Assembly (NCBI GenBank): GCA_964057225.1
Contig: OZ059895.1
Coordinates: 8,556,001-8,620,000, forward strand
DNA: 64,000 nucleotides
Reading direction: 5' to 3'
Origin: Auanema rhodensis
Taxonomy: Eukaryota > Animalia > Nematoda
Of the stretch, positions 1,787 to 28,975 are shown one piece after another (within the stretch, counting starts at the first letter, position 1; every line of letters starts with the position of its first letter). Below the pieces are notes generated by a model. That model saw only the letters and a program-made list of their open reading frames with translations. It was not told the DNA's origin and did not search any database. A program made the position numbers and the translations under genes.

Positions 1787-1788
<2 letters not shown>

Positions 1789-1838
<50 letters not shown>
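1789..1838. repeat. (CT)n microsatellite
   Basis: Read directly. Confidence 0.95.
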
Positions 1839-1841
<3 letters not shown>

Positions 1842-2554: not shown

Positions 2555-2557
<3 letters not shown>

Positions 2558-2604
<47 letters not shown>

Positions 2605-2614
2605 GAGAGAGAGA
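2558..2614. repeat. (GA)n microsatellite
   Basis: Read directly; one interruption. Confidence 0.95.
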
Positions 2615-4775: not shown

Positions 4776-7700
4776 CTAACCTGGAGATATATTTGATAGA
4801 CGAGTAATCATAGCTTGCGTTTCCTGTTCCATGTCATCTTCAAAATACTGATTTGGTGAGTTCTGATCATCAAATAGGGAGAGATCGACATAGCTCAGCC
4901 ATAGCTTAGAGACAGGAACTTGCTCACGAACAGCTAATGGAATAATATGTTGACGAATTGGTACTGGACCAGTGCACACGATCAAATCATCCTCCAGCAA
5001 TTGCTGTGGTTCCTGCTGCTGATGGAGTTGCTCCAACTGATCGCATAATGGACGGAAAGGCTCTAACGGACCATCAAACAAGCATGACGTATTCGTGTTG
5101 TTATCAAGTACAGTGAGCAATGCTCGAAGCGGGCTAGGCCGACAAACGAGCAGTAGCAGACGACGTCGCGGAATGGATGGACGACTCATCTATGTACGGA
5201 ATACGGGCCACGTCCTTCGGCACAAATGCAAACCAGCGGGGGCGTGGCGAACCGCCGACGACGATTGTTGACGCGTCACCGCGACCGACATCGTTCACGG
5301 TCGCATCTCTTGCGAGGCCATCAGCATCTCCTTCGTTGTGATTACCGTTCCGCAAGCTAGCTCTCGTTAGTTTTGTCAAACGCCCACCGACAAGCGAGTG
5401 AGTTTCGGGGAAACGTATACCAGCAGCCATGAGTCCCTTGATAGGTAATGCAGCACCGGGAAGCAAACTGAAAAGAAATAACTGAAAGTATTTTCTTAAG
5501 AAAATGTTTATATTCGTAAAGAGATTAGTTATTTTATTTGCTAAATAGTTAATATAATTTGATTTGAAAATGATATTCTTTCTTTCTCTTCGTACTTTCT
5601 TCTAAACTTAATCATTTTATTTAATATTAAACTGAAAATTGTGTGCATGGGAGATTTTCCTCTTCTTTTGTTTTTTGATCAAAAAAAAAAAGTTTTTACA
5701 TACTTTCTGGTTGCGGCTCCTTTAAAAGCCTTTAGCAAGGCCATTGCATCCAGTCCACGTCCCCAGGTATGGATTTTCTCGATACATGAAGAGCCCATCA
5801 CATCAACGGACAACGTCGTCAGAATCAATCCAACAAAAAGAAAAACTATAGAAGCGACCATATAGCCAACATCTCCTTGTGGATAGAGATCACCAAAGCC
5901 AACAGTCATCTGAAATCAACTTCATGATGATGATGATGATGATTTATAATAATATATATTTAATAATTTTCTCATAGATCTCATCTATGTATCTAAGTGA
6001 TGACTTTGTATCTAATATTCCATCATTAACCTTGATGTTCCAACTTTTTTTGAAAAAAAGAAAAAACAAAATTGACTTTGTATCCCATGAATCCAGAAGG
6101 ATATGTGATTTCAAGGCTTTTTACATAACTTTCTTACAAGTTTTTGCCTATTATTAGGTGAGGTATACCAACGATGAATGAGGTTGTATGTAAAATCATG
6201 ACGATAGTTTTACTAAAAAAAACTGAAGAGAAACGAACAATATGAATGCCCTGTGGGTCAAGCAAACTGGAAAATGGGGTTGCTCAATATGGGTTAAAAA
6301 GGTTGAAGAATTCACTTCTTCCAACGTTTCTTTCAGCATTAAGTTAAAACAAAAAATATGATTTTTGCTCCAGCACTTTGAAGGACACATGTATATGTGT
6401 GTAGATCCATTAGAAATTCTTACTATTTAATTATTTCTTATGAACTTACAACTTTACTTAGATTTTCCAGTTGTTTTTTTTTTCAAAATTTTCTACTTTC
6501 AATCTCATTAAGAGGTCCGAGGCTTATCTTTTTCAAGCTATCTTACATGACCTAATTTCAATGACAGAAAAGACAGCGTCATCAACCTTACGAACTGTAG
6601 CCAAAAGACAGAGGTGACAGACGTTGTGATTTAAGAGGAGAACAATGAAAGAAATTCAAAAAAATGAATTCAACGGCATTAGAATTACCAGTCATTTCAC
6701 GAATTTACTTTAAAAAGGTTGTCAAGATTGATACGGCAAAATGTTAGAAAAAGTGAAAAAGAAAGAGAGAAAATTACAAAGAATTCTAATTTGAACTATA
6801 AAAATAATTAAATTGAAATAAAATAATAAAAATATCTAATTATATGATATAATATAGATTATAAATATTAATATTTGACAAGCAAAAGGCTCAATAAAAA
6901 TGTTCTCATGGTTAATAAGATGTAGAGATTGCCTAAATCTGTTACAATCACCGCTGGGCAAGTGCTACCGTGTTCCTCTTCTTACTCTGATTTCATAGAT
7001 AACGACAGACAAGTGATCAGAAATCATCGTTTTGCCGTAACATGAGGCCAAGTGCCGAGCTTTCAACCTTTTTTCTTGATATAATCGATAGAATAATAAA
7101 ATTACTATATATAGTTAAGAGAATATATGGATATGTTTATGTTATAACTCTGAAAATATGGTTAAAGCTCTGAAAATATAAGTTTTTTTTCATCAATTTT
7201 TGTCTTTCCATCGACTATATATTATTTCTAAGTGAGTTTTAAGTTAGTATAATTTATAAAAAGAATTTTATAACTAACCAAGCTAATTAGACAAAAATAA
7301 AATGAATCCAGAAAATTCCATGTTTCATAATAAGTAAATATCCATGCTGATACAGCCATATAAGAGAATAATGTAAATAAAACAGTCATTTGTCGTTTTC
7401 CTGATACCTTAAATAGAAAAAATAAAAATAAATAATATTATAAATTATTATAATAAACCTCAGCTAATGGATCATCTCCTCGTCTTCCTAATAATTCAAC
7501 TATAAACTTAGCAACATCAGCAATTGTGATGAGTGTTAAAGGAATTCTGAAAAGAAAAACTTAAAAATTGTGAAAAAATTATTAAAAATGGATGAAAAAC
7601 AAAAATTGAAATTATTATATTTGCAAAATACGAACCCAAATATTGCATAGCACATGCAGAATATTTGCCCGAATGGAGATATTGGAATAAGATGTCCATA

Positions 7701-10009
7701 ACCTAAATGTTTCCAATATAATATATATTATATATATATATATATATAATATAGTTACCAATAGATGTTAAAACGGTTGTTGTATAAAATATTGATGATG
7801 CAAAATTCCATTTTGATAGAAAAGTATCATTATTAAGATCTAAAATAACTATTTCTAATGTTAATATATATTATGAATATTCATATTTAGTCTATTATTT
7901 TCTTCATATTAATCAATATTAAGAAATTTATATATATTATATAATTTATAAATGAGAAAGTTATTACAGATGACTTACCAAATGGCTTGATGCCAGCTTC
8001 AAAAGCTTGAAATGTGACAAATGTAAGTTGATCTATAAGCTGAAGAGCTGTCTCATTAGAAGGATCATTTTTGCCATTATAGTCGAATATTGCTTCCTGA
8101 AGAAACAAAATGTTTTAAATAAAAAAAAATAATTTTAAATATATTATATTGAAGATGCGATATAGTAAATAGAGATTAAGAGATGAAGCCTTTTTCAGTC
8201 GATATCCTTAATTCAATTTATGTTCTCAGAAAACCATTTGTCTTAGTAATCATTTTCATTGAAATACATGATGTAAAGCAAGATATGTTGTGTAATCTCA
8301 ACAGTTTGTTGTACTCTTTTTCCATCTTTATATATAACTATATGCAGTTAACCTAAGGTAGATGAAGCAAGTACTTTAGTTGAACGTGACACAAACTGGC
8401 TCTCATTGTTCCAGAACGACGGGAAGTCGTGCTCTTTCAAATTTTCCAACCTAATATTACTTCAATTGTACCCTACCTGTTTGAAATTATTTCAGTGAGA
8501 GTTTCAAAAAAATGTAAAGCAGTTTACAAGAGAAAATTGACAAATGACTAACTTCAGCTTTTTTAATTTCGCGCAGGTGGTAATTTCTATGTTGTAACTC
8601 ATATGGTTGTTCAATAGCAGCAAATACTAGAGCTTAAATTTGGTAGATAGATTCAACATATGCTATACTTGAAACATACCACCTAGACAGACATACGATA
8701 ATGTGGTTGTGATTAAAGCTATATGAGGAAGAGCCAAACGACACATCGTTTGAAATTTGCGACGACCTAAATATTTAATTATATATATATTTATAAATAT
8801 TATAAAGTATATATAATGATAATTAATAATAATCTACCGCTTCTTTTGCCAAATTCATCTGAATCTGTTGATTCGTTTAAACAGAATGCGAACGGAATAA
8901 AGACGCGAAACATTGAGATGAGCAATAATGAAAGACAAAATAAAGTAGAATGTTTTTAGCGTTTGCTGTTAGGCTCTGGAGGGAAAAGAAGAGATAGAGA
9001 GAGAGAGAGAGTTGGTACGAGTTCATTCATATAAGAAAAACAAAGTAATCCTCGGGCTTATACGGCTGACAGCACATGCTATTAAGGATTCGACGAATGA
9101 GCGCACATGGAATGAACCGGTACTACGAGTTTCGTCTTCCTCATATGGATAATGGAGCAGACATTCAAGGAACAATGAGAAAGAAGAGCCGGTGGATAAA
9201 GTTATTCATGACATCGTGTGAGTTAATCGGATGAAATAAAGCATGAACACGAGTAACATAGTGGATAGAATTCTGAACGCTGATGTGCAGAACTATAGAA
9301 GCATACCTTTCTCATTTCCGGCGTCATCTTCGGGAACTGTTGATCCACCTTCCACATGCGCTGACAAGTTCATCCCTTCGGCAATGGCAGTTCTTCGGGC
9401 GCCGCCCAATCCAGCAAACGCTACCTACATATAATGGTTTAAGTTCAAGTATGCAAAATGGTTAAATAGGGCTGAAGCCATTGACATAGCCTGAGGCTAA
9501 AAAGAAGATCAAGTTTAGCATTTAGATTTTATGAATCAAACTACTTATAAATTTCTTTAAACTTTTCTTAAATGTCAGTTAGTTAATCTTTAAAATCCTT
9601 TTAAACATAAATTGTCAAAAAATAGACAATGAAGAAGAATAAGAAACGTATATAAGTAGTCTAAAAATATAAAAAAATTATAAAAAAAAGTATAAAAGAA
9701 GTTTAAGAAGGCATTTTCAAAAATTATATTTCTCTTCGTTTTATGAAAATATTACGAAGTGTGGGTATGTTATACCTAAGAATCAACGTTTAATAGTGAT
9801 GATGAATACTCGAAGAAATGCAGATGAGTGGGAAAAAATTGATTTTTAATAAGAATGTTTACATTAGATATGTGGTTTTGAATTAAAGATGTGCAGATCT
9901 TCTTCCTGGGTAGTAAGCATATCCATTCGGCTATTACATTATATTTTTCAAAGTGAGACGAGAAAGCTCGTTGTGAATGAGTTGAATTTTGAAAATGATA
10001 TCAAGACAG

Positions 10010-10058
<49 letters not shown>

Positions 10059-10339
10059 GAGAGAGAAATGAATACCCAAATTCTTAGTAATAGTTTAAGA
10101 GATTCATGTATAAAATATATAATTGCAGTTGTGCTGACGAAATAAACGTGAAATCTTACCTGATTCATGGTTGCAGGGAGTGATGTAGAAGCTCGTAAAG
10201 CCCTTGTACTCAAATGTCCATCTTTTTCTTCAACGATAGCATCGAATGGAACAGAGACAGAATGTGGTAAGATAGGTACTGGTATGTACACAGACGCCAA
10301 CTGAGCCGCTAAAAATCGACTGCCTCCCAAGGGATTCAT
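4776..10339 (-). CDS. Two-pore-domain (TWK/KCNK) potassium channel, multi-exon; stop at 5134 (unspliced tail) or 4776 (spliced long tail)
   Basis: Spliced exons give M1 ([25 protein letters not shown]), pore 1 ([17 protein letters not shown]|GYG), M2/M3, pore 2 ([14 protein letters not shown]|MTVGFGD), M4 ([14 protein letters not shown]) and a tail with [15 protein letters not shown]. The twk paralog cannot be identified. Confidence 0.92.
10014..10066. repeat. (GA)n microsatellite in the TWK first intron
   Basis: Read directly. Confidence 0.95.
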
Positions 10340-11920
10340 TGTCTAAAAACGTCTTCAAGTGATTTCAGAATGGAAATTGTTGTCTAATGCGTCTCTTTCT
10401 GTCAACTTGTCATCCAGAAAGTCTGAAAAGTAACAAACTAACGCATTTTTTTTAGGCATATGTTAAAAAATGAGCAAAAAAATAATTAACGCTCTGTATG
10501 TTCTTTAATGTCTATTACTAATCAAATTTAAAAAAAAAAGATTTGCACCCTAAAGGGAAATATCGACAATGCTAGAAGAACAAGTCTTGCCATCAGAATG
10601 GACTGAATCTTCTTATGAAAATTGGATGTACCCCCAAGGAGCTTAAGGGAACGCCACAGGCACGAAAAAATTGTATAACATAGAGAACAAATCTTTAAAT
10701 TTATAAAGAAAATACTGCATTAGTTAGCATGAGGGAAGGACAATATTTGGGTCTTACCAGGGCAAAACATCAGCAATCTTGTCCGGCTCACCAATCTGCA
10801 CATATTTCTTTATACTCGTGAGACGCAGGAAAACCTTTGAAATAGCAAATGGTTCACGAGGACAATTGCTATATTTGTAATTGTATTCATAAAAGAAAAA
10901 AATATTTATTATTTGATAATACTAAAGAATATTTAACCGAAATACTCATATCCGTTCCAAAGTTTAAATATATCAAAATAAACTTAAAAGTAGCTTTCGG
11001 AAAATAAGCCAACTTCAGATCTTCCAAACAAATCAATTACTTTCCTTTTCCTTTTTTATTTGTAAATGTGACAAAATATTTCTCAGGTAGCAATTCTTTG
11101 TTAACATCCCAATCATCAGCAAAAACTTAATGAGGTTATAAGACAAATGTTTACCACGTTCAGAATGAATGGACTAAATTTGGTGACAGTTTCATCAAAA
11201 ATATCACAAACTTGAAAACCAAGTTTTTTAATTATTAAAAAACTAAATTCTTGTTTATTTCAAACCATTTATATTTATAAATTTACAATATATTAAGTTA
11301 AATATAAATCCAAAGTTAATCAATATCATATTATTAATTGAATACAACCGCTTGCAACAACCTTTCGCGCCAAATAAGGTTACATTTAAACTGATTTATT
11401 TTGTTTTTTTTTAAGAAATTGTCATTTCTTTTTAATTTCAAGTATATAATATAGTATTTACTTAATATTTTCTGTTTCAGATTTAACTTACTAAACAATA
11501 AACAACACTTATCAGAAGACTTAGAACAACTCGAAGGAAAAGCAACTATAAATAAGGTATGTCTTATAAATATTTCAAACAAATTAAAAAAATTGCAACT
11601 TTTAAAATGAGAAGTCAGATGTATATGAAACAGATTTTATGCTGCTTCATTACATTTGCCGATAGCGAGCAATTTGCTTTAATGTAAATCGGTGTTTCGG
11701 CCATATTGATCATTGGAGCATAAATTTTGCTAACTGTTTAAACCTACTTGAAATATCCAGATATCTATATTGATTTGAGAGTTTTTTCTGGATTGAATAT
11801 TAACTGTTTAGCAGTAGAATATTATGAGAAAAACATATGTTAATGTATTCTTTATTATAATTATTAGTCTTATTATCTTTATTAGTTATTAATATTAAGT
11901 TTTTGAATGGCTTGTGCTTG

Positions 11921-12948
11921 CTATCCAACAAGTGTTGGGTTTGCTCTATTAGAAACAAGTTGATCTACAACTTCATCTGTGTTGATTTGTGGAAGATTAA
12001 CATTCGGTAAAATGTGTGCAAAATTCATATCTATGTCATTGAATCGTTCATAGAAATGACTCTGAAAGAAAAAAAATGTTGAAACGGTGTGATTGAATTA
12101 TTGTTTTACCTTGAATGGCATGTGGGTATCAGTACCGGGAATCGGAAAAGAGAGTCTAGAATGGAAAATATCCACGGCTTCTTCATCGTGCTTACGTAAA
12201 ACTTCTGTTTGAAAGTCAAACATCTACGAAGATTTTGATTATCTTTTTGTTTGCTTTATCAATACTAACCTCATTTAATCCTGGTATAGGTATATCTAAA
12301 GCCACAGCTGAACTGTCGAATTTCGAACCATCTACTTCTGCTCCCACAATGAAAGAATTCTAAAACTCAGAGTCTTTTCTAATTAATAGTTTCAAGTAAA
12401 AACTTGAAAAGGCTGATGCTGTCCATCTGTGTATAAATGTGGCATTCGAGCATATTGTCTGTAGTGTCGTTTTAAGTCAAGCCCTATAATCTCACAGTGT
12501 ATATATTCAATTATCGTCATGAAATTACCCAAGAAGTTCACTCCTTGAATGGCATATCCGACTCCCCATGAATCACCATAATCATTATTAGAAGCTACTC
12601 CTACCATGTGTGTAAATGGATTTAGTTGAGCATGTCCAGAAAAATGTTTGTCTTGACCCGGCAGTGAAACATCAGGTATTGCTTGTGTCTACTTTAAGAC
12701 GGCTTTAATATACGTATAATATATAAGAATACCTTATGATATAGTTTATTTCCTGCTATATACAGATTATGTAAATATGGTCCAGAACGATGATCAGAAA
12801 CTCCAAAAGGTAATCGAATAAGACCGATTCCTCGTGGTCGAGCACAATAGAATGGAGCTAATTAAAGAGTTTCATTATGTTTTTAACTTAAAATCAACTT
12901 ACTAAGGAAAGACAGGAATACGAGGCTGGATAGCCTTGCAGAGGCCAT
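11921..12948 (-). CDS. Secreted protein of unknown function (signal peptide)
   Basis: Multi-exon frame MASARLSSLVFLSFLTPFYCARPRG...LNPFTHMVG...GDSWGVGYAIQGVNFLG...NRANPTLVG* with short GT-AG introns and a hydrophobic N-terminus. Confidence 0.75.
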
Positions 12949-13827
12949 TAAAGCATGTTATGGTCTAATACTTATCTGCAAACTGTAGATAGATGTACGA
13001 AACTCTACAAACTTTTTAGGAAGATTTCAATAAGAACGATTTTTAAAATAGACGGTTGAATGAAAGGGAAGAATTGAGGCCGAATGATGAAAGTGAATTT
13101 TATCATTGTTGGAGCTGGGTATCCCTTCGGACGAAAAAGAAAATGCGCACGTCCGCAACCGGGAAACTGATAATCACTGAATCATCATTTTCACAGACAA
13201 GCAGTTGAATATATGGCTGAATATGTTGTTGAACCCACGACCAATTTGTATGTGACCCACGGATACATCGTAAGAAATAGTCATTATGATCCAGAAAAAA
13301 GCAGGTCCTATGAACTAGTATGTGCGCTGTTGGATGTCAATTTTTTTTTTCGAAACAGAAAAAAAGTAAAGAAAGTTCAACAATCATTAATATTGAGTTC
13401 AAATTGTTCTATCATATTTTACTAGCCCCAAATCTGTTTGATGGAATAACTTTGTGACAGATATAAGATATATTGTATAAGAAAAGTGGTACAGGTAACC
13501 TTATGTTTATCCCTAATAAATCGCGTTGAAACAGAATCAGCCATCTAGGAGAGATGTTGATCATTTGTATTCAGTGATACATTGGACCGACGTTTGACTA
13601 TAATCTTGATTCGAATAAGAAATGATGTTCAAGTAAAATTAAGGTCGATAGACATCCTAGCTTCAGCGGAAATGAAACTGATGTCGATTGAATGTTTGAG
13701 ATTTTCCTCGAATCAATATTTAAAACGCGCGTTCGAATATAAGAGTTGTGGGAAATTTGAGGTTTAAACAAAACTAAATATCTAATTGTTTATATGTTAT
13801 AGGTAATATTATTCTATATAAGGAATA

Positions 13828-16800
13828 ATGATTAGAGTAAGTCAAGTTTCAATGTTACTCATGTTTGAATGCTTAATTTGTAGCAAACTGACGCTGCAAC
13901 ATCATCTATTAATACAGAGGATGGACATTTCGTTTGGAAAAAAAGACCGAAGTATGATATCCTCATATTTTTAAAGTTTTATCTCATTTAAATCTCAGAG
14001 GATTTGGTTTACGAAGAAATCTAAAAGTCAGCCGAGCTCATGCACCTAAGCCTGTAACAGAACAGCCTGAATCGGTATTTCAGGAACAATTCTTAGTTTT
14101 TTAATATTTTTTCCATATAGAAATCCCTATGTGTTATTCAAAAACCTGTTCGATCGACACCTCTTCAAGATAATGTAGGTTGTGTAATCTAATTGTCTCT
14201 AAAGAAATATAACTTCAAGATTTATGATGTACAAAGGAATTTCAAAGCGAGTGAGCTATATACTTACGAATTTATTGCTGTCATTAGTTCATGGAAAGGA
14301 GCCTTGTATAAAAAAAGATTTCAAATAGTTTTTGATCTTTTGCTGGATACACTACCGCAGCCAGAAGTTGTGCGTGATAGAATCAATTATAAGATTATAG
14401 CAACTCGTTGATTACAGGCAATGATGCTCTGTATTTTTGATTTAGCATCAAAGCAATATCAAGATCTTGGCTCTTTCTATATGTTCATGGGTTTTGAAAT
14501 TAGGCATTCAGATATAAAAGATCCAATATGTTTACCTTATAGGTATGTAATTAAAGAAAAAGAATTATAATTTATTGAATTTTAGGCCAATTGATAATGT
14601 TGATATTCACAGTTTATTAGAAGAAATTAAAGTCATGAAATCAAGCTTTTTAGGATTAAATGATATTACTCATAATGAAGTTCATTAAAAGTAAATGTAT
14701 GAGAAATAATTATATATTTTAGTTTACTATTGATATTTGTTTTGTAAAACAATTATTAGGAAGTGGAGTATCTGAAGTAGCTAAAGTTTCTCGGAAGAAA
14801 AAGGCAACTTCTAAGGATGTCATAGCGGAAAATAATGGTTTTCATGAAATTCATAACTTTATTCCATTATTTCCTTTCAGTAAAAAAGTTTTGTTTGGGA
14901 ACAGCAGTCCTGCAGGGAATGGCACTTGTTAAACATAATAATGATATTGATAACTATGAAATTGAGAAAGAATGGTACAGACTTTCAATTTTAAATGATA
15001 CATCTGCAGAATATAAGGTAATATATTATTCTTTCTTTTTCCTTTTTACATAAATAGATATAGTCAGATATTGCTGTTGCAAAACAATTATTGTTAGACT
15101 CTGGTATTAATAAAGAAGAAGATTTTACTATTAAAGATGTGTCAGCTGTTCAGGTTTGAAACTGAGATGCTTATTATTCATAAAAGTTACTAAAGGACTT
15201 CCTAAGTGGACAATATCAAATTGTTGTATTCAGTGAAGGTCATAACAAATCTCCGATTTATAAAGGACCTAGTTTAATGGAAAAAAATGTTATTGGTATT
15301 ATTTCTAAATGATTTCACGAATTTAAAAATTTAATATTACAGCACTTGTATGTCAAAATGGCCACTATGAACTAATTAAGAAACTGCCACAGTTCGTTGG
15401 AGCTGGATTTTACTGCGTTCACTGTAACGTCAAAAGCTCCTCATTATCAGATCATTATAGGTAAAACTTTAATTGAATAAGTTGTAATTAAGAATTGTTT
15501 CAGTTGTCCTTTACGTTGTCGATTATGTTCATCAATGAACTGTGTCCCTGAAGATAGCATTGAAATTACATGTGAAGAATGTAAACAAACTTTTTATAGT
15601 GAGCAATGTTTTAAAACTCATAAAATGAAAGGTATTATTGTTTATATTATTATTTAAATTCAAAACATATTGCTTTTCAGGTATTCTTGGAAAGAAATCA
15701 CGTTGTGAAAAAACAATTTTCTGTCCTAATTGTCAAAAATTATGCAAAGATATGAAGAGACACAAATGTCACAACTATTATTGTCAGCATTGTAAAGTAA
15801 TTTTTCTATTTTATCTTCCAAATATTATGTTTATGTTCTTAGGTTGTAAGGGAAAAGGGCCATCAATGCAGTTTACCTCCTAAGGAATATGGTGCTGCTT
15901 GGGGATATCCTCAAAAGCGAATATTTTTTCTTGTGAAAGTAAAGCTTTACAATAGACAATTTAAACAAAACATATACTATGTTTCAGTCTGAAAAAATTT
16001 TCAAACCTGACGGTACTTTTATCGAAAAGCCTATGCTGATTTTGGCTATTCGTTTTTGTCCTGAATGTAGGGCCTACTTACCTTCAAGAGTAGTTAAAGT
16101 AAAGGAAATATTGAAAATGATATTCATTGAAATTTTGATTAGGGTGCTCAAATGACTTGCAATAACTGTTCACCAGATGGCTGTCGAACATGGATTTTCG
16201 AGCGTGTATTTAAAGGAAATAGAAACAAGGATGTAGTTCTGGAATTTCTTCAATGGCTTATCAATAAAAATCATTATCGTTTTGCTGCCGTATCACATAA
16301 TTTAACTCAGTTATCTTAATTTGTATTTTTCTTTGTATATTTTCTATTCATTTAGGGGTGTCAGTGATTTAATCATGCAATATTTAACCCGTGAAGATGT
16401 ACCAAAAACGAAAGAATGCATTGTTGAGAATGGACGTTTAAAATATATTGTAATTGAGGGATCTCGGGTTAGTTCAAATTATGTTTTATTATTATCAATT
16501 GATGATTTTAAGCAAAAAATTTGCGATGCTGATCAATTCATCCCAGCAGATATTAGGAAGTTCTCAAGAGCTCTTGGACTATCTCTCAATGATCAAGGGT
16601 ATGTACAGACAAATTTTTGCTTTAACTTTAAATTTTTGTCCAGATATTTTCCTGAAAATTTTATTACCACAGCAAATGTGAGTTACATTGGACCTCATCC
16701 TGCACTTAAGGAATATATTACTGATGATATGTCGGAAGATGATGTGAAATATGTGAAGGAATTCCACGATTCAGAACTAAAAAAAGGAGAAATATTCAAC

Positions 16801-19502
16801 TTTCAAGATTCATTAATTAAGTATTCATCTTTATTTATAAGAAATTTGTTATCACATGAACTTCATTTTAGGCATTCTTACTTAGAACTTGTTCAAATGT
16901 CATTATGTTTCATGACTGTTGAATCTATTATTTATAATCAATTAGGTGTTCGACTGTTTGAGGAAAGTTCTAATATGTATAGAGCAGCTATTTGTGGATT
17001 CAGAAGGTACGTACGTCAATATTAGAAACTTGTAATTTTTTCAATTCAGAAAGTTTCATACTGATAATTCTCTTCCATTAGACAAAGGACAAGGTGCTGC
17101 TTTTCGTCAAACTTTCTCTATGACAGCTATGAAATATTTATCTTGGAGAGCTCATGTGGAACAAATACCAATTGACACAGCAGTAAATGTGGGAGAATAC
17201 AGAGTATGCTTACAACCAAACAGTTGGCATGTGCATTTCATTGAATATAGGTACCTGGTACTCCATTTCATCTTGACGGTTTCATACAGCCATGCGAGAA
17301 ATATCCGAGGGGCTTAGGAATTGATGTTAAGGTATCTAATCGAAAACTATTAAAGTTCATCAACTTTCCTAGGGTTGCTACTGGCATGCTCACGGTTGTA
17401 CCTATGTGCCTCAAATGGTAGCCAGGAGAGAGCTTAAAATTGATACAATTCGTGCCAACGATAAAAAACGTGATGATGAAATTAGGTTAATTCAAATTTT
17501 AAAAAATTTTATTTTGCTTTTTTTATTTTTAGACGTCATATTGACTTAGAAATAGTGTGGGAATGTCAAATTGCTTTACAACGTATGACAGATACAGATA
17601 TGGATAATTACATGAATAAATGCAATTTTGAAGTTTTTTTTAAGTGCATGAATTATTTATTTACAAATTTAATTTCAAGGGAAAAGCTGATATTAATAAT
17701 GCAATCATGCCATTATTTTGTGAAACATTTCATTTAAATTATAGAAAAACGTATGATTATGATAAAATCCATTGCCGAGACATCGTAGAGTAAGTTGGAA
17801 CATTAGGATACTTCTGAGCAACATTATCATATAGTGTACCAGCTATATGCATGAAACTTGATCCTTATCCTAAAGGACCTTTCCGACGAGTACATGGAGA
17901 GTTATTCCAAGTTCCAATTGAAAAACCTGATGATCTTCATCAAGCAACAGGCCTTCTATACTGTGTTGTTAGTTCATATTGAAAATAATGAATACATCTT
18001 GTGTAGGTACTTCCACCGAGTCATATGTTCATGCCATTACTTCAATATAAGCTAGATGATAATGCCATTCTTACTCTCTGCCGAAGTATGATGTTATACA
18101 ACTTAAAATCTAAAATTACTTTTTTGCTTTAAGCATGTACGGAACAGAAAAATTATTCTGAGTGCAAGCATACTGACGCTGAAAGAATGTTTTCGGGCAC
18201 ATGGTCCACGTTTGAACTTAAACTTGCTTTAGAACATGGATATAAGATCGTCAAAGTTATAGGAGTAATAACAATATTTCTTTATTTCATTCCCTTAATA
18301 TTTAATTTTTAGGCTATTCACTGGAACGAATGGACAAAATTTTCAATCGATTCTAATGGAAAACAAACTTCAGGAATTTTTTCTGATCTTGTTGATGCTG
18401 TACTCGGAAATAAGATTGTGATTCTAACCATCTTCCTCATCTTCTTTCAAACATTTTTCTAGGCTTCGGCTGGATATCCTGAGGGAATGAATTCGGATAT
18501 GGAACATGAAAAGTATATAACTGAGATGACAACAAGATATGCTATGCCAATCGGCAAAGATATAGTCAATAAAAATATTTATGCTCAAAAGATGGATGAT
18601 GCTCTCTTAAGAATTGTATTTGTTTATTTTTATTTATTAGTTTATTAATATTATAATATTTAGTGGAAAACTTTTTCTGAGAAAAGTGATGTACCTGTTT
18701 GTGAAATTGCTCGATCATCATCAGATTTATGGAAAATTTTAGAAGATCCAACGTTATTGGTGAAGGAAATTAAAGTATTCATTCTAATTTTTCCCTCTTA
18801 AACTTTAATTTCATAGGCTGTTAACGATGAATCTGCCTATTTTTGTTATGGCAAAAAGAAAGAAAATGCCATTCCTTTGTTTGAGACGGTGACATTGGTT
18901 GAAGCTTTGACTGCTTCACATTCAAGATGTAGAATTTTCCGATTCATTCAAAATTTGGAAAATTTAGAAAGAGATCTGTTTTACATTGGTTTGTTTTAAT
19001 TAAGTTTTAAACTATTTTCTACTATATTATAGATGAAAAACACATTATTTACCGTAGTAATGAAGATAATGACCCATTATTTGATTTGACTCCTGAATAT
19101 CCTAAATCTACACCTAAGGATGATATAATTGAATTCTTATCTCCAAGTGCTGGATGTTACCTCTTGTCTCGCTCATCCGAAAACAGCATTACAAATGCTT
19201 TACAGGTTATACTGATTCCTGACTTCTGAATTGTTTTTAATTTTCAGGTCGTCGGCTTCTCAAAGATTGAGGCGGCATGTGATATTCAAATTCAAGCCGT
19301 GCGAGATCAAGTCGCAATGTTATTAGAAAACCAATGTGACTCGGTAGATATTTCTTATGAACACATCGAACGAGATTCTTTCTATCTTCTCAAAAATGTG
19401 ATTAAGACTAAACGTCTTGAAAGCAGACTTGCATCCAGATATATAAAGATAGGTGAAGATGATTCTGTGCAAACATGGCCAATTGGTACAGCTTGTGCAT
19501 GA
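13828..19502 (+). CDS. Intron-rich Polinton/Maverick-derived protein-primed DNA polymerase B homolog (roughly 1350-1400 aa); polymerase and exonuclease motifs degenerate, VSR-like nuclease retained
   Basis: One open frame through about 34 short introns. Polinton pPolB landmarks appear in order: OTU-like FCL...GHYELIK, Cys/His zinc cluster, SHN, GYFPENF..N..YIGPHP, FNFQ, GEYRV...LDGF...GCYWH...WEC, YPKG, LCRTC...CKHTDAER..GTW...EL..AL..GYKI, K.AS.GYP, and C-terminal TWPIG. Confidence 0.9.
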
Positions 19503-19720
19503 TTTGTTGTTCATTCATATATATTCAAAAACGTTTATTTTATGTTTTTCAATTATTTTTAATTTTATGTACAAATTGTTCCAATAGTAGTAGCTAGCAA
19601 TCGATACGACTTACAAATTTACAGAAACTAACTGCAATTTGAAAATAATTCTTATTTTTTGTACATAATCGTATATACATAATGTAACCAATGAAAGTTA
19701 TTATTATTATTGATTACTCT

Positions 19721-21633
19721 TTAAATTTTACTAATTGGAACTTCTTCAGCTATCAATAATTCTCTATCCCAATCGGGCATTTGAGCGGGAGTTCCCAGGA
19801 ATTTCGCGAAAAATGCGATAGTTTTTACCCAAGTTAATTCTTGACTGCGGGCATGTAAAACTACTTCACCTCCATAACCACAGTAGAAACCTTAAACGAT
19901 TGTTGAAGAACTGTTACTGTAAAGATAGATTGATTACCTTGATATTTGGCATAAACTATATCATGATGAGGGAAATATGGTGGCTCCATGATATGTCCTC
20001 CGTTGACGATGTCAACTTCAAGGTTGTGGTGGCCCGTTTCTCTAAGCTGACGCATCTTTGCATGACTTGCGAAAATGGAATTGTTAACGAGATCATCTGC
20101 TGATGCTATGAATCGGTATGCTACATCCTTGGCTACACGGTCAAATGGAATTATAGTTTCGGGAGACGGCTTCAATGTCATCAATATACGATCAGTTACC
20201 AGTATTCCATTGATAAAATGAATTTTAGAATCATCTAATCTGTAGAAAAAATGTTATTCATAGTATAAGGTATGCTATCACTTACTCAGCTTCTTTAAGC
20301 GGAACACCGTTTTCGAGCAGTGTAATGTAACGGTTTTGAAGATAGGGTCCGTTGATTGATACTACAGCTTTAATCTGCAAGATAAATATGAAATAAGACT
20401 TTACGAATTAGAAAAGTACCTGTGGGCAACGTGTAGAAATAATATCTACAAGAGTGGCTCCAAAAGATACTCCTTGAATTCCTATGAAGTTGCCGGTATA
20501 AGGTCTACTAACCAACCATTCAATTGCTTTCTGAATTTCAATGCAATTAATTGAAGCATTGGAATGTGATATTTACTGTAAAATATTGGAGATCAACTTC
20601 CTCTAATTTGTTTGGGAGATCTTTGAATTGGAAAAATGCCAAACTAAACACAACAAAACCTTCAGATGCCAACATTGAACCTTTGTGTTCATGTAAACCA
20701 CCTCCAGTACCCGAAATATCTAAGACTGTTGGATAAGGTCCATCACCTAAAACATTGAATAATTTAAAAATAACTGTGTTTTGCATTGTTTTACCTTGAG
20801 GCTTAAACAAAGTTCCATGAACTCCATCGACACTTATTTCTTCTCTGATTAAAGATGGATGCATCCAATGTTTTTTGATCAATAGAGTGTCAAGAAGTCG
20901 ATCTCCAATATCGTAAAGTCTAAGATTATTCCAATCGGTTAATGCATATCAATGAATAATATTTCCTACTGAAGCTTATAGATAAAAGGAATTGGTGGAG
21001 TACAGCGTAGATAGCCACCAAAATCAAATTCCGGAGTTGGTCTTTGGCTCATGAAAAGACCCATTGCGTCAGCCTCTGGAATACCAAAAATGATTTTTAG
21101 ACTTCAGATTAATTTACAGAGTTGTAAATTTTTTTGTTGTTAAATATCATTTATACTATAGATCGTAAATGTTTTTGATTTTGCTGCACAGTCAAAGCAT
21201 ACCGTTATAAGTTCCTCGAATTGGAGTGTTGGTTGGAACATCAATTTCTCCTGCGGCGTCAGCTTTATATGAAGCATATGCAGCATGTCCTCCATATTTA
21301 TGTTTCAATCTAAATTTTGAAAATGTTTCTTTATACTGTTGAAATATTATGTTAAGCGTTAAGCGATATAGTAATAGATAAAATGTGCAGTTGATATAAT
21401 GTGACTTTGATTCATAAGGATTTTTCTTGTGATAAGAAGAAAATGAAGCAATATGCAAAGATTGCAAATCAAATGACATTATAACGAAGTAAGCTACATC
21501 AATGCGTGAGGTTAATTTACAACTAGGCTCACCTCATGACCATTTTGTACGGTTCAAATGGTTTCAAATTTTTAGCTTTGATGTGAACGCGCTCGCGTTG
21601 CATGGTATCGGGTTTGTCGATCCACAGCGACAT
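19721..21633 (-). CDS. Acyl-CoA thioesterase / BAAT-family alpha/beta hydrolase ending in SKI (PTS1-like)
   Basis: Family motifs ADAAGEID, DISGTGGGLHEHKGSMLASEGF, nucleophile GVSFG and catalytic-His region GGHIMEPPYFP. The last exon ends EEVPISKI*. Confidence 0.92.
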
Positions 21634-23793
21634 GCTTGAATAGTCTGCAAATTAATAGGTAATTAACAATACTTTATGATCAATATTATTATTTTATAAG
21701 ACATATGAAAAACTACTGTTATAAATTTAAAAATAAATAGAATTTTTGAGAAAAACAGTACAACAAGCTTCAGAACTGATCACCATAACCGATAACGCAA
21801 TGAGCAAACAAGCATGTACAACATAAAACCTCACTATAGATTACATAAGAAAAAGAAAAGAATTTAATTCAATTAGTATTTATAATTAAAATAATGTTAA
21901 TATGTGCATATTGTTTTTTTTAAATTACAATTATGAGGTGTTAATTGAAAATACATAAATCAGTTAATGAATATTTTGAAAGTAGAGAAGAAATTTATTT
22001 TTTGAAATGGCGTACATTCCGTCAAATTACTGAAAACTGATTAAATTTTAGGCTTATATACGGAAAGCTAGATACTTATCAGTACATAGATTGGAAGACA
22101 CATGACGTCTTCCCATCGTGTGAATTTGGAAAGGCGTAGTTACAGAGAGCTGAGCTATGATGTAGCGAGCACGATTCCGGGTGGGAGTTCCGCAAAGATA
22201 AGATTTAAACAGAAGTAAATTTCCTGTCTACAATTGAGCGATTGATGTTAGCAGGATGGTATTTCCAAATTATGTACTTTTATAGCTGCAGTTAAATAAT
22301 TACTCTCATTAATATCATTTTCTTCTTCTTTAATAGTAACTATCCTCTAATATTCTATAAACTAATATTTTATTATTATTTAAAATTTAATTTTCCATAT
22401 ACAAACATAATAATAATAATATATAAATATTAATTTATGTTTCAATCCACCCTCAAGCACGTTCAATAATTCCATCATATGCTAATTTCAAAATTGTGCG
22501 TGATTGTTTTTCATTTTTGTACAGTTGCACACATTGAATGGTTGCTAATATTCATACAATTCATTTTATTTTTAAAAAAATTATATTATTAACATATTTT
22601 ACATATAAATAAACAATAGTTTAGTATTAAAATTTTATAATTTTTAAAGATAATCTAATATTTAATACATTTATGTAAAATATCATTGGTTTTTATATAA
22701 AATATTTAAATATTATTATAATGCTATTTGTACGTACAATGGAGTCTGAATAATTAGGTGCAGACAAGATATCCAGTGCTTTGTTTCCAGATGTCTTATC
22801 AGGAAAGGTCAATTTCATTTAAGCGGTATCTGCTAACAGTAATTCAACCATTAATCTTTTTTATTCATAACTTCTACACATAAAAAGGAAAAATATAAAA
22901 ATTTTGAGAACTGATAATTTGCTGTAGTATCAATCCTTATCATAACAATACAAAAAAATACGGAAGAACTTTCGTAATTACATAAATTTTCAGAAGATTA
23001 TTTATGCTTTAAGTACATCTGTATATATGTGAATGTTCCGAATAAAAATGTTAAAATACATACATTTCTTTAATATTTTTATATTTTACTTCTGTATTAC
23101 CATATAAACTGTTTGTATATATTTTTATTTAGAGTTTTGTGATAGTTTCTATAATCAGACTACATTATGTTCAATGAATAATTTCCATGATTTATAGCAG
23201 ATTACAAGATGAAAACAAACTTGATATCACATTGTAGAAATGCAGCAGATTGTTTTTCTTATCTACTTGAAACTACATTACAGTGTCATTTGGGTACAAT
23301 ATATCTTCAATATATGGCTATATGATATGCTACAGCTATTATACCCGAGATATATATATATATATGTACAAAACTTAAACTCGATATATAAACTTGGTCA
23401 ATAATTGATTTAAGGTGTATTTATCCAGCTTGAGTGCAACTTAATAAAAGCGTAATGAACGTCTATTTTAAGCATTTTCTATTTTCTCTTTCACTTATCA
23501 TTCTCGATCATGTATTGTATCTTATTCTTGAAATACGCCGTGTCCAGAAAAGCAATGTGAACTTCTTGCCGCTGGATTAAAACGACAATCGCTTCAATTT
23601 TTTGATTATCTAGAAAGCCTGATTATCTAGATCATTTCAGTTATAGAAATTTGTTGATAAGATAAACAAAGAAATAGTGATTATTCAAATTAATTCAATT
23701 CTCAATATTTCTTCAAATGATTTTAAACAGACTGCACAGTATGATTTTTTGAACTATTATCAGTCTAGCATTTACATTGGAATATTTTACTGA

Positions 23794-24946
23794 TTAATCG
23801 TCTTCTTCTTGAGTTCGAATCGATCTGAGAGTACAAAGAAACCAAGTTATTTTTCTTTAATTTATTAAGCTAGACGTTCTTAACGACAATGACAATTATT
23901 ATTATTAATATTATTAGGATATGACATGACATCGCTTATGTACAGCAAACATTATTTTTTGTTTTTTGAAAAAAAAAACTATTTAGGTGGAGAAAACCTG
24001 ATATTAACATCTCCATCATTATTATTATCAAGAGCTGCTCCTACATATAAGGGATCATATCCAGGAACACCTACTACAACTCCCATGCCTGTTCCTTCTC
24101 TGTCTCGAATTTTTGTGTTTGACGATAAGTCTCCCTATGTAGATATGACAATGAAGAGATTCAATCAAAATGACTTACCAAACTGAGTAACTGGTCAGCT
24201 AATGTACCTTCTTCTGATCGAACACTAGCAGATTTAACACGGTAGTAATGCAATAAAGCCTTCTCACACATCAATTCATCTCCAGATAAACAAGTTCTTA
24301 AATGATACTATTGATAAAATATAATTTGAAGATGTGTTACTTTTTGGCTTTTGCTAGTGCACCACTTGCTGAATCCTCATATGCCGAAGTATCTAAACCT
24401 TTTTCATATTTCCTATAATATATAATTAGAAATAATTTATATTAACTATATGAACCTTTCAGTTATAAAATGTAAATTTATAGGATCCATATTGGGTATT
24501 GGTAGATACATTCCATTAATATCTCTTCTATTACTTCTTAACCCTGTTTTAGATTCTAAAAGCATATGACTATCAGGAAGGCCAAACTTTGCTTCAGCTC
24601 CTACAATAGTTACATGTTTTTTGAAATTTTTATATCAATACCTGTATCTCTTTCACTATAGTGATAGAATGCTTTTGGAACTGCTAGCTTACCACTTTTG
24701 CCGGGCCCAACTGGAATCTGTAAAGATATGAAGTTGAGACAATAAGACAAGACTCAATTTTCTAACCTCAAGGTAATTCCGTTGACCATAATAATCTCCA
24801 GCATTACCAAATGCGAACTTCATTCTGTCAGATCTAACTCGAAATTGAGGATTAATATTATCAATTCCTCCCGGTAGATCATCATAATCAGAATATGAGT
24901 ATACAGAATAAATTAGGAAAATTAGGAAGAACAGTACACGGCCCAT
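23794..24946 (-). CDS. Secreted protein of unknown function
   Basis: Signal peptide MGRVLFFLIFLIYSVYS. The multi-exon frame runs through GVVVGVPGYDPLYVGA to RSIRTQEEDD*. Confidence 0.7.
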
Positions 24947-25309
24947 GGATGAATATCAGAAAGTGAAAGACGATCGGTGAAAGTGCGACATAGTTTTTAT
25001 AAGTGACCTGATTAACTGATGGCTGATCGTTCCTTGTCGGAAACATGGAAGGTGTTCAAACCTAGTTTGATACATTATGACAACTTTTTCAACTCTGCAG
25101 GAAATCACTTTCAACTACCTCTTCATTGAAATATATTTCTTATGATCAATTTCAGCAGTTTCAGAAAAAATGTTAATACAAAAGAGATGATGAAATAAAT
25201 TTGAAACTAGATTCAGGAAATTTTACATAGAGTATCTATTCGTAGCCAATTTTATCAAAGTTTATTCAATTATTAAAAACAGTAAAACAAAACAAATTAG
25301 AAAATGTGA

Positions 25310-26352
25310 CTAGCTGCTATATGTGGTTTGTTGTAAAACCATATCGCGAATATCACCTTCCTGCTCTACTAGAGCGTACCCGTTAGCCGTATCAAAAGCT
25401 TTTATGATTTGAGCCATACTTTCCTTTTTCCTAACATCCAGAGGTAAAAATGACACTAGATCGAAATCGGAAATAATCTAAAAAAGCTCAAAAATATTTT
25501 TATCAATGAAAACGAATTTCAAACCTGACATATTGCTTGGTTTAAGGATTGGTGTCTCTCTAATCCAGGAACATCCTATAACGCAATAATAAAATTGCGA
25601 TATAAATAAATTACATACATTGAGAAGCTCAAGAAGTTTTTTAACATCGGGTAGTTGTAGAAAGTACTCCAAATTGAAAGACGCGTTTTCATCGAATAGA
25701 TCTATTTTTGACAAAACGTTCACCTGTGGCATTTCCAAGGAAACCATCGTGGCTGAATTGAACTAATTTCAAATTCTCAGATAAAATATGGACTTACACA
25801 AAGTAGACATCACAACAGATATAAATTTAGATGCATCTGAGCAATAAAGAGAATCAGCTAAATGTACAGCGCATAACCGTATTCCCGCGGCTTCCAAATG
25901 CCTAATAACCTAAACTATATTCAATTACTGAAATATCAAATTATTCAACTCACTCTCCAAAGTTCTCCTTCACTTTTATAAAGTTCTAGCTGTCCGGGAC
26001 AGTCTAATATAATGTATTTACCCTTATTTGCTAATATTTTATTCAAAAGCCATCCTGGATTTCTACACAAAGTTTCGATGCAGTATTTAAGAGAACCATT
26101 GGGACCAAGTCCGAGTCTATCCATAACTTCTTCAACAGTGATCAATTCCTATTATTGTTAATGTAATTTAGAAATAAGATTAATTAGCTAAACCTTAATA
26201 TCATAGTTAGCTTCGTACTCATTATTGTCATTTGCGGGGTCAAGATTAAAAATGCAAAACTCTCTATTCAGTTGGGAGAATATATCCGACAGACCAGTAC
26301 AAAAGGTTGATTTTCCTGCACCCGGAGCTCCAATAACAAGTATTCCATACAT
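25310..26352 (-). CDS. gpn2: GPN-loop GTPase 2
   Basis: P-loop GAPGAGKST, NLDPAN, signature LGPNG, DCPGQLE and NVLSKIDL. GPN2 is preferred over GPN3 on overall pattern. Confidence 0.88.
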
Positions 26353-26424
26353 GATTTTTTCACATTTAACGGAAGAGAATATGCAAAATTCATATTTTTC
26401 AAAATAACTCTAAGAAAAAGCAAA

Positions 26425-26500
26425 ATCGTGGCGGGACCATTTTCGCCTTCTAAATGTGCTCACGGGCCGTGGAATTTGCGTCTTCATCGTCACGTGCAAG
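26425..26500. promoter_or_regulatory. Probable bidirectional promoter core between GPN2 and ari-1
   Basis: GC-rich island in AT-rich DNA between divergent start codons. It contains E2F-like TGGCGGGA, TTTCGCC and an E-box CACGTG. Confidence 0.45.
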
Positions 26501-26830
26501 TTGTTTTTTTTAATATTTAAAGTTATAATCAAACCAATATATTAAAAATATTCTGCTCAAAAATTAGGATATCATTACTGTATTTTTTTAATGTCGTATT
26601 AAACTATCTGTTACTTTTTATATTTATCTATTTTCCGTATTTACGATGTAGTTACATAAAGTCATGCTTGTTTACGCAAAATAAAAAGCTAGTTTTCATT
26701 CTTTTCTCATTCCTATTTTAGGAGTTAACAGTTTATTATTTATTCTTGAAAGCTAATTGTTCACTTAATTAGATATTTGCGTATTATTCAAATTTTTTTA
26801 GCATACGTTTATGCATATTTTGCCTCTAGA

Positions 26831-28975
26831 ATGGCGGAAGAATATGATGAAGATTTCAATTATTCTGACTCAGGTAGTGAGAACAATGATAATCAGGTAA
26901 TTCATTTTTGTCATTATTTTTTTTTCACTATTCGACTCGGTCGGTCATGAATTGTTCTGTCAGTTCTGAGTTTGATTCTTTCCAGGTTTTCATATTAAAC
27001 CTAAATATATATATAATATTAAAAAATTATTTTTGAGGGATTGAGTGAAGATGATGGGATTGAGATGGAACAGGAAGATTGTTCTATAAATACTAAAGAT
27101 AGTGCCATTCTGGAGCGATCTGTATGCTACTTATACTTTTTTGATATTATTTTCAATGAATAGGTGATGACAAATGAGGATCTCATTCGTGATATGAATG
27201 ATTCTATTGCCGAAGTTGCCATGATATTACGGATCAACGCTGGAACCTGTAGAATTCTTTTAAATAAATTTAATTGGAACAAAGAAAGTTTATTGGAACG
27301 GTAGCTTTAATTACATAATTTGCTTTTAATTCCATATTTTATAGTTATTATGAAAATCCCGATACGGATGCTTTTCTCAAGTCATACAAAGTTTGTCTCA
27401 TTCATAAATTCTATCACTTTATTATTGCTCTTATAGGTCATACCAAGTATAGATTTCCCTAAACCCCCGAATAATGATGAATGCATAGTATGTTGTACAA
27501 ATTTACCTCTTAGTGGTCTTCAATGTAACCATTGGTGCTGTAGCCCTTGCTGGGAAACGTATCTCAACACAAAGGTATTTTGCCATATAATTTATCAAAT
27601 AATGCTTAAAAATAATAGATTATGAACGACAACACTGCTGATATACAATGCTTTGCATTTGACTGTCCTCTTCTTATAGAAGATGAAAAGGTTTTGCTAT
27701 TTTTATTTCCCAGTTAACGTTATTGTGTTTAGGTTTTGTCATATATAACTAGAGACGATGTTCGCTCAGCGTATCGTCGCCTAATGGTTAATAGTTTTGT
27801 CGAGTCGAACAGATTAGTAAAGTGGTGTCCTGGGCCCGATTGTGGAAAAGCCATAAAAGTGGATTGTTAGATATACTCTAGATTAATATTTTCCGTTATA
27901 GGTTGCTCAAGCTGAAGCGCGACCTGTTGTATGTTCTTGTAATACCTGTTTCTGTTTTGGATGTGCACATGAATGGCATGAACCAGTTAATTGCCGTCTT
28001 CTTAAACTCTGGCTAAAAAAATGCAATGATGATAGTGAAACTAGTAATTGGATTAATGCGAACACCAAAGAATGTCCAAAGTGTCAGGTATGCTTATGTG
28101 CTCGTATGCAAAACGGTAATTTTTCGTCAGGTTACCATTGAAAAAGATGGTGGTTGTAATCACATGACATGTAAAAATGCTGTCTGTAAGATGGAATTTT
28201 GCTGGATGTGCTTAGGACCTTGGGAGCCTCATGGAAGTGCTTGGTACAGTTGTAATAGGTAAGCCCGTATCTCAACTAAAAGTTTATTTGGTACCCTGTA
28301 GATATGATGATACCAATGCCAAAAAGGCAAGAGACGCACAAGAACGATCTCGAGCTGCATTGCAGCGGTATCTTCATTATTATAACCGATACATGAATCA
28401 TCAAGCAAGTTTGAAATTGGAAAATAAGGTATAGCTCTTTGCATATTCTGTTTTTAATTTGGGTTTTCCTTTAGCTTTATGCTACTGTCAAATCAAAGAT
28501 GGAACTGATGCAGCAACAGTCTATGTCTTGGATAGAGGTTATATTTGTTTGTTCTTGCTGATCAATTTATTTTAATTCAGGTTCAATTTCTTAGAAAAGC
28601 TGTTGATGTTCTATCGGAATGTAGGCGAACCCTTATGTATACATATGCTTTTGCTTATTATCTACAACATGACAATCAATCTATAATTTTTGAAGATAAT
28701 CAAAAGGTTTTTTTAAAACTAAGTATTTAATATTCATTGTTTACTTTCCAGGATCTCGAAATAGCTACTGAGCAACTTTCTGAATTTTTGGAAAGAGATT
28801 TACCTAACGAAAATTTAGTAACATTGAAGCAAAAGGTAATTTTAAAAAATATATATTTTATTTTCAAATTCTTCAGGTGCAAGATAAGTACAGGTATGTT
28901 GATAAGCGTCGACTGGTGTTATTGAAGCATTGTCAAGAAGGTGCTGAACGAGAATCTTGGAAATTCACAGAATAA
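26831..28975 (+). CDS. ari-1: Ariadne RBR E3 ubiquitin ligase (ARIH1-like)
   Basis: Acidic N-terminus, RING1, IBR (KWCPGPDC), RING2 ([24 protein letters not shown]...[13 protein letters not shown]) and Ariadne domain ([31 protein letters not shown]). Confidence 0.95.

Follow-up and report, generated by a model that had tools for sequence, protein, structure and literature searches.

We describe a gene of the nematode Auanema rhodensis that descends from the protein-primed DNA polymerase (pPolB) of a Polinton/Maverick element, is expressed as spliced transcripts, and has an orthologue in a second Auanema species. Its exonuclease and polymerase motifs have been lost, its vOTU protease, zinc-binding, and Vsr-like nuclease residues are retained, and constraint is strongest on the Vsr-like insert. 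We think it probable that this transcribed, intron-rich sequence is a host gene whose product serves as a DNA-binding platform carrying a Vsr-like nuclease, which is predicted to be active. The features of the gene are listed in the table.

Table. Features of the gene, with coordinates in the analysed stretch of DNA
Feature	Position	Strand	Remarks
5' untranslated first exon	11500..11556	+	true start upstream of 11500
Whole coding sequence	13828..19502	+	ATG at 13828, stop at 19502; 1,377 aa; 34 coding introns of 39-51 nt each
N-terminal region, terminal-protein-like domain and GSG linker (14759-14767)	13828..14830	+	by alignment
vOTU-like cysteine protease domain	14831..15380	+	Cys235 (14892) and His347 (15363) retained
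Cys/His-rich zinc-binding array	15381..15911	+	invariant C/H 20/20 kept; 110/131 identical to orthologue
3'-5' exonuclease domain	15912..17059	+	ExoI-III carboxylates replaced; invariants 13/28 kept
Vsr-like endonuclease insert	17102..17617	+	invariants 8/8 kept; 117/127 identical to orthologue
Polymerase palm/fingers/TPR	17618..19124	+	motifs A, B, and C disrupted; invariants 27/50 kept
Thumb and C-terminus	19125..19502	+	GPK/KxKG lysines gone; invariants 3/9 kept; 61/110 identical to orthologue

The gene is present once in the window, the whole 64-kb stretch that we analysed. It has 35 introns in total. One of them, 2,246 nt long (11557-13802), follows the 5' untranslated exon, and its GT-AG joint (11554/13801) is seen in contigs X10, X11, and X12. 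An earlier note on this DNA had recognized the pseudo-polymerase, but the true start lies about 2.1 kb upstream of the one it gave. Junctions directly visible in spliced contigs number 22 of 35 (21 of the 34 among coding introns) and include those at ExoI-III, motif A, and motif C; the remaining 13 coding introns were placed by GT-AG sites, the orthologue, and the span of the assembled contigs. Within 15915-19260, contigs from RNA-like runs show GT-AG joints for 19 of 20 introns; these runs come from a single study and their RNA nature is a guess, though the contigs are spliced. The intron that splits motif B (18616-18663) is repeat-masked, and the offset between model and contig is constant at all seven check points across it. 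The junctions that split the motifs, whose confirmation the earlier note had called for, are thus visible directly for A and C and supported by the constant offset for B. That note had also allowed that other junctions might bring back SLYP, KxxxNSxWG, or DTDS. We tried 53 combinations of other GT/GC-AG sites lying up to 27 nt from the six motif junctions; none (0/53) restores a motif, and motif-restoring alternative splicing was rejected on this basis.

The domain order is terminal-protein (TP)-like, vOTU, zinc array, exonuclease, Vsr-like insert, palm, and thumb, which matches the TP-vOTU-exonuclease-palm architecture of Polinton pPolB outlined in PMC11161782; here the vOTU, exonuclease, and palm are recognized by fold and the TP-like region by alignment. 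The orthologue, P0001 from Auanema sp. JU1783, is identical at 997 of 1,370 residues (73%). A predicted model of its residues 225-1381, a span that leaves the N-terminal region outside the folded model, scores pLDDT 81.3 and pTM 0.74 and overlays phi29 polymerase with Z 19.2 (511 aligned, rmsd 3.3), in the manner that the earlier note had suggested checking; this model leans towards the canonical pPolB fold because it was built on 57 mostly canonical pPolBs. In the N-terminal region, 170 of 226 residues are identical to the orthologue, and the relatives' QS motif has a Ser that, as judged by eye, the two Auanema species do not have in common.

We then compared the exonuclease and polymerase motifs with those of relatives. 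The nine motif readings of the earlier note were all found in the spliced frame at the positions it gave, and replacements fall in columns that are 95-100% invariant in 149 relatives. In ExoI, D and E are replaced by L490 and K492 (15930, 15936); in ExoII, D is replaced by V587 (16360), though H and N remain; and in ExoIII, Y and D have become H711 and E715 (16873, 16885). The GGR of GGRT is deleted at about 17719, motif B has D1136, R1140, and K for K, N, and G (with R/Q at the N position across the two Auanema species), and the lysines of GPK and KxKG are gone. Motifs A and C are lost only in part: motif A has lost S, L, and the steric-gate Y (the Tyr is deleted) but retains D938 (17779), and motif C has K1238 (19038) for its second D but retains the first as D1236 (18988). 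D938, D1236, and the ExoII H-N are kept in both Auanema species. P0001 also carries nearly all the same replacements, with an identical residue at the ExoI D/E, ExoII D, ExoIII Y/D, motif B K, and motif C second D positions. In the relatives, the second D of motif C is found in 132/135, the motif B K in 144/144, and the ExoI E in 139/139. Among the 134 of 149 relatives scored at four polymerase columns (the other 15 did not span all four), nine differ at one column and none at several. Retention of the polymerase-domain invariants in 138 relatives has a median of 0.98 and a minimum of 0.82, against 27/50 here. Erosion of the nine polymerase and exonuclease motifs is confirmed, with the retained residues just named as a qualification; the catalytic motifs of the vOTU and Vsr-like domains, which the earlier note missed, are not eroded. 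The idea of a pseudo-polymerase with its fold kept is supported by a phi29-like predicted fold with replaced motif residues.

The Cys-His dyad of the vOTU domain, described in PMC11161782, is intact (2/2); relatives have the Cys in 128/128 and the His in 132/134. The predicted model shows an OTU fold (Z 9.4 to 3von, 9.0 to 4boz) with the Cys on helix 1 and the His on strand 4, and the protease is predicted to be active.

The residues of interest in the Vsr-like insert are E804, D815, D831, C835, H838, H840, C842, D863, and C882. D815 corresponds to Vsr Asp51, H838 to His69, and D863 to Asp97; D863 and C835/H840/C842/C882 were placed by pairwise alignment to Vsr, and the four latter residues correspond to the Vsr zinc ligands. 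Within the whole model the insert aligns with E. coli Vsr (1cw0) at Z 9.0 (109/155 aligned, rmsd 4.3), and a Vsr profile matches with E 3e-6. The insert resembles Vsr and Vsr-like homing endonucleases in this fold and in the Asp51/His69/Asp97 equivalents, and also shares their aromatic wedge pair and the acidic residue that the homing enzymes have at the Phe62 position (PMC2677866); the Vsr catalytic residues are named in PMC2677866 and PMC4081097. Unlike E. coli Vsr, the nuclease sits in a 1,377-aa dead polymerase and has Lys (K833, in both Auanema species) at the His64 position. Relatives have His there in 38/147, and since this column varies among them, His64 is not defining for the Polinton form. 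Both species also have Asp where Glu is usual in the family (E in 112/147 relatives, D in 6/147). Both substitutions speak against an active nuclease, though both columns are variable in relatives. With the insert alone as query, an Atlas search matched, at 0.92-0.94, unnamed clusters from molluscs and one linked to PF03175; this adds little.

In a comparison of two species by residue identity, the Vsr-like insert is the most conserved part of the protein (92% vs 73% overall; p 2.6e-8). It contains a perfect 76-residue run shared with the orthologue (17165-17480); the longest run in 20,000 uniform simulations was 54. Canonical Polintons show no such excess: in four of four Caenorhabditis pairs, conservation is 0.46-0.55 for the Vsr domain, 0.50-0.60 for the exonuclease, and 0.48-0.58 for the polymerase. 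Conservation as extreme as that of the insert is also compatible with a DNA-binding or a protein interface.

Nearest in sequence among the canonical relatives in the matches listed are Caenorhabditis Polinton pPolBs, the best phmmer matches being those of Caenorhabditis remanei (1e-123) and C. brenneri (4e-117). In a quick tree of 46 rows, built from the zinc-to-palm region and limited to relatives ranked within the first 45, the Auanema pair is sister to four Caenorhabditis pPolBs (SH-aLRT 99) on a long stem of 2.34. The Atlas search returned nematode PF03175 clusters at 0.98, and a direct Pfam scan of P0001 did not find PF03175. Besides P0001, no orthologue, and none from outside Auanema, appeared among the best 150 of 3,557 phmmer matches; P0001 was the sole match in word-index protein searches, and no related loci were found in a metagenome scan with P0001 or a viral-contig scan with P0002. 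Decayed copies occur among the relatives (P0006). The gene is like the nematode Polinton/Maverick pPolBs (C. remanei CRE_29165, that is P0002; C. brenneri P0003; PF03175) in domain order, in 26-29% identity, and as their sister group. It differs from them in that they keep the ExoI-III and Pol A-C motifs, and in its 35 introns, host-gene surroundings, and constraint peak on the nuclease insert. Its neighbours are host genes (BAAT thioesterase, GPN GTPase, IBR, Nop, and ion-channel). Pfam assigned 18 ORFs of the window to host families or to nothing, no inverted match was found between 1-13800 and 19501-45000, and tblastn of the window with the ATPase part of P0003 as the query gave no match. 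Within this coverage, the setting is not that of a Polinton/Maverick element, which would bring integrase, ATPase, capsid, and protease genes and terminal inverted repeats. An intact expressed frame, an orthologue in a second species, and a position outside an element are the marks of a domesticated mobile-element gene, and all were found here.

A DNA-cutting role is likely because the copying and proofreading sites were lost while the nuclease insert and the protease site were kept. In such a role, the dead exonuclease/palm/thumb ring and the zinc array would retain a hold on DNA ends or on junctions resembling a primer-template, which the Vsr-like insert may nick via D815, H838, and D863. 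The vOTU domain could release the TP-like domain at the N-terminus, a cleavage proposed for Polintons, or strip ubiquitin where the protein acts. Candidate host processes are the rearrangement or repair of the genome and defence against the elements from which the gene descends.

The earlier note favoured a purely DNA-binding or scaffold role. Our analysis does not support this, because the vOTU dyad and all eight Vsr invariants are kept and the Vsr-like insert is the most constrained part. We consider it unlikely, but worth weighing, that the protein is a fully non-catalytic scaffold whose insert was kept because it wedges DNA or binds a partner, and not as an enzyme. The 76-residue perfect run exceeds what an active site needs, and the E-to-D and H-to-K changes adjoin the metal site. 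There is also a precedent in Chordopoxvirus F12, an inactivated protein of the pPolB-type fold with replaced palm catalytic residues, exapted to a structural role in virion morphogenesis and transport (PMC4304020). F12 is viral, whereas the present gene belongs to the host, descends from a transposon-virus, and keeps two other predicted active sites. Against a scaffold, 8/8 Vsr and 2/2 vOTU invariants survived a stem of 2.3 substitutions per site, along which roughly half of the exonuclease and polymerase invariants disappeared.

As a variant of the nuclease-platform reading in role only, the protein might restrict Polintons, which we regard as rather improbable. The dead polymerase would recognize TP-capped element ends or replication forks, block the active enzyme there, and cut the DNA. 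Domesticated viral genes often restrict their parent elements, but arms races usually drive fast change, and the insert is nearly frozen. Moreover, the gene is at most 24-30% identical to known Polinton polymerases, among the matches listed. In favour of restriction, the TP-like, vOTU, and DNA-binding parts are all retained, and Polintons are reported from Auanema rhodensis (bioRxiv 10.1101/2023.08.22.554363).

There is very little to recommend an atypical yet active polymerase or nucleotidyl transferase with D938 and D1236/E1237 as metal ligands: both aspartates and the adjacent Glu are common to the two species and the palm fold is predicted intact, but the steric-gate Tyr is deleted, the motif B Lys, Asn, and Gly are replaced, Lys stands for the second Asp of motif C, and the thumb lysines are gone. 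A neutrally decaying Polinton relic or gene-model artefact, to which the failed Pfam assignment of the orthologue and the decayed copy P0006 might point, is barely credible: the 1,377-aa frame stays open across 34 introns, the transcripts are spliced, the orthologue shares the replacements, and constraint differs by domain. The evidence supports a gene under selection, and on this point we agree with the earlier note, which had preferred a retained role to neutral decay.

Returning to a nuclease platform derived from a pPolB, one specific function deserves mention. A. rhodense discards almost two thirds of its genome, with a palindromic motif at the sites of loss, by an 'as-yet-unidentified' machinery (bioRxiv 10.64898/2026.08.27.747507), and a homing-endonuclease-like or zinc-finger factor has been speculated on in the field (PMC13060919). 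We suggest, as a long shot, that the protein makes the breaks when Auanema, and perhaps other rhabditids, carry out programmed DNA elimination. In this picture, recognition or holding of the 29-bp palindromic elimination motif would fall to the zinc array and the dead polymerase ring, cutting to two Vsr-like inserts, and delivery of the ends to telomerase to the end-binding fold. RNAi and CRISPR tools exist for Auanema.

In the openly licensed literature we found no account of any Polinton polymerase having been domesticated into a host gene. The nematode Polinton survey describes filters that demand an ORF length of 900 aa or more, and integrase-linked genes, and that would miss the present gene. 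The ciliate transposases domesticated to make the breaks of programmed DNA elimination (PMC13060919) are likewise mobile-element enzymes turned host genes in a chromosome-breaking lineage; they belong to a different enzyme family, and here the elimination role is a candidate one. If that role is true, animals would have their own equivalent of these domesticated transposases, drawn from another enzyme family. The gene offers one named, testable candidate for the elimination cutter. More broadly, it illustrates a pattern of exaptation in which the defining activity was dropped and an accessory nuclease insert is now the constrained core.

We modelled the gene from its transcripts. The window is AT-rich and eukaryotic in character, with GT-AG introns of 40-50 nt, and GT-AG joints were found over the whole locus in contigs of four RNA-like runs, all from one study; a single 4,356-nt contig of one run (X10) traverses the coding region. 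At least 22 of the 35 introns have listed joints, and the remaining 13 were positioned from contig coordinates together with GT-AG sites and the orthologue, with a one-residue ambiguity at one donor. The offset between model and X10 contig was constant at 7/7 check points, which fixes the position of the masked motif B intron. The earlier note had described a pseudo-polymerase with every exonuclease and polymerase motif eroded and the fold kept. None of the junctions seen restores a motif, nor does any of 53 combinations of alternative junctions near the motif introns, so this claim is not refuted. The internal coding exons are strikingly even in length (CV 0.26; minimum 0.52 in 10,000 random exon placements). 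Starting from an intronless donor, the gene would have gained 34 introns, regularly spaced.

Window positions of the gene and of features discussed in the text
Feature	Position	Strand	Details
Host-gene families	about 5000-9000 and 19700-31500		Pfam: ion channel, BAAT thioesterase, GPN-loop GTPase, IBR, Nop-domain
Transcript within 2.2-kb first intron	11867-13759	apparently -	Contigs in X10, X11, X12, X14 (RNA-like runs)
Open frame, ATG to TGA	13828-19502	+	1,377 aa
Internal coding exons	13884-19205	+	33 exons, mean 117 nt
Ambiguous donor	14367 or 14370	+	Inferred intron
Model-to-X10 check points	15988-19697
Perfect run in Vsr-like insert	17165-17480	+	76 residues, two species
Loose-end letters of DNA runs X13/X15	17275-17432
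Intron in Vsr-like insert	17332-17372	+
Apparent overlap with convergent thioesterase transcript	19502-19697		BAAT/acyl-CoA thioesterase

A full HMMER scan gave 3,557 matches at E<=0.001, of which the best 150 were listed; every residue replacement named earlier was borne out in an alignment with the best 149 relatives. Absent in both Auanema species are the ExoI Asp and Glu, ExoII Asp, ExoIII Tyr, GGR, the steric-gate Tyr, the Lys, Asn and Gly of motif B, and the second Asp of motif C. The replacement residue is mostly identical in the two, which argues that motif loss is older than the species split. The motif A Asp, the first motif C Asp and the ExoII His-Asn remain. Columns at least 90% invariant among relatives were kept in both species in 13/28 cases for the exonuclease, 27/50 for palm plus fingers and 3/9 for the thumb; relatives retain the same invariants at a median of 0.96-1.00 (palm minimum 0.82, n = 138). 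The fold does appear to be kept. An AlphaFold2 model of residues 225-1381 of the orthologue, built with 57 relatives and therefore guided by canonical sequences, reached pLDDT 81.3 and pTM 0.74. Its top predicted structural match was phi29 polymerase (Foldseek 1.8e-14; Z 19.2, 511/567 aligned, rmsd 3.3 on superposition) and, among viral models, adintovirus PolB.

Three features 5' of the interval covered by the earlier note had been overlooked: a TP-like region, a predicted OTU-fold domain (Z 9.4) and a zinc array with 20/20 ligands present. The OTU-fold domain carries the Cys and His that form the vOTU active site, according to excerpts of PMC11161782. Between exonuclease and palm sits a Vsr-like insert with 8/8 invariants kept, among them the equivalents of Asp51 and His69 (E. 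coli Vsr numbering), given as catalytic in excerpts of PMC2677866 and PMC4081097; pairwise alignment also places an Asp97 equivalent. Two substitutions speak against catalysis, Lys at the His64 position and Asp in place of the usual Glu, although relatives vary in both columns. The insert is identical at 117/127 positions between the two species, versus 997/1370 for the whole protein (Fisher p 2.6e-8), and in 20,000 trials of a uniform simulation the longest identical run never exceeded 54. In four Caenorhabditis pairs, by contrast, it is conserved no better than the polymerase, which argues that constraint here shifted from polymerase to nuclease insert.

Across the 149 relatives, with pPolB classes pooled, the insert is almost universal (His in 145/147), Caenorhabditis proteins included; this contrasts with the available text of PMC10748475, which places nematode VSR in marine pPolB2 only. 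The X13/X15 letters resemble a pair of diverged Vsr-exon relatives. The first has an acceptor at the tabulated intron position and is possibly an orthologue from a third species; the second is without this intron, has the usual Glu/His and is possibly a Polinton near the donor, 30-letter glimpses giving a weak hint of each. In a 1,086-aa Caenorhabditis brenneri protein (P0006) the aspartates of ExoI, ExoIII and motif A are altered and the C-terminal palm is missing, yet Asp, Glu, Cys and His of the Vsr insert are retained; it is either a copy in decay or a parallel instance.

Among the best 150 of 3,557 matches, the sole close protein relative is the 1,381-aa orthologue of Auanema sp. JU1783, and the closest canonical relatives are Polinton polymerases of Caenorhabditis, whose motifs are intact. 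In a quick ML tree (46 rows) the two dead proteins are sister to these (SH-aLRT 99), on a stem of 2.34 substitutions that calls for long-branch caution. The 64-kb window holds no second gene copy, and the flanks tested no packaging-ATPase match or terminal inverted repeat. Ordinary host genes flank the locus; among these neighbours, we take the ion channel to be two-pore-type, the IBR ligase Ariadne-like and the Nop-domain protein PRP31-like. Short ORFs of the first-intron transcript had no Pfam match. One X11 contig covers both the pseudo-polymerase and thioesterase genes.

We favour, with some reserve, a protein whose zinc array and dead polymerase would grip a DNA end or junction, the platform offering an active Vsr-like nickase to the bound DNA while the vOTU would process a precursor or remove ubiquitin. 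A scaffold without catalysis, with which the two substituted insert positions would agree and the kept catalytic equivalents would not, is rather unlikely, and an anti-Polinton factor unlikely. We give little credence to a break-making factor of Auanema programmed DNA elimination. Excerpts of two preprints (bioRxiv 10.64898/2026.08.27.747507; 10.1101/2025.08.21.671558) describe elimination in Auanema at a 29-bp palindrome common with Oscheius tipulae and call the machinery unidentified; the expected factor, in excerpts of PMC13060919 and PMC13370393, is a sequence-specific DNA-binding protein that either makes the cut itself or brings in a nuclease. With zinc fingers and a DNA-end-binding fold attached to a frozen domain of the homing-endonuclease family, the protein matches this, but elimination is widespread in Rhabditidae and its motif common with Oscheius, whereas the orthologue was seen in Auanema only (none elsewhere in the best 150 of 3,557 matches, from a library that may not cover those species). 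Because Vsr is a nickase, a double-strand break would also need two copies. Residual polymerase activity is highly improbable given the lost motifs, and neutral decay negligible beside the frozen insert.

Orthology, genomic context and constraint together argue for domestication: the gene is a real domesticated Polinton pseudo-polymerase, outside the active pPolB family and apparently previously undescribed, whose working part is likely the nuclease insert.
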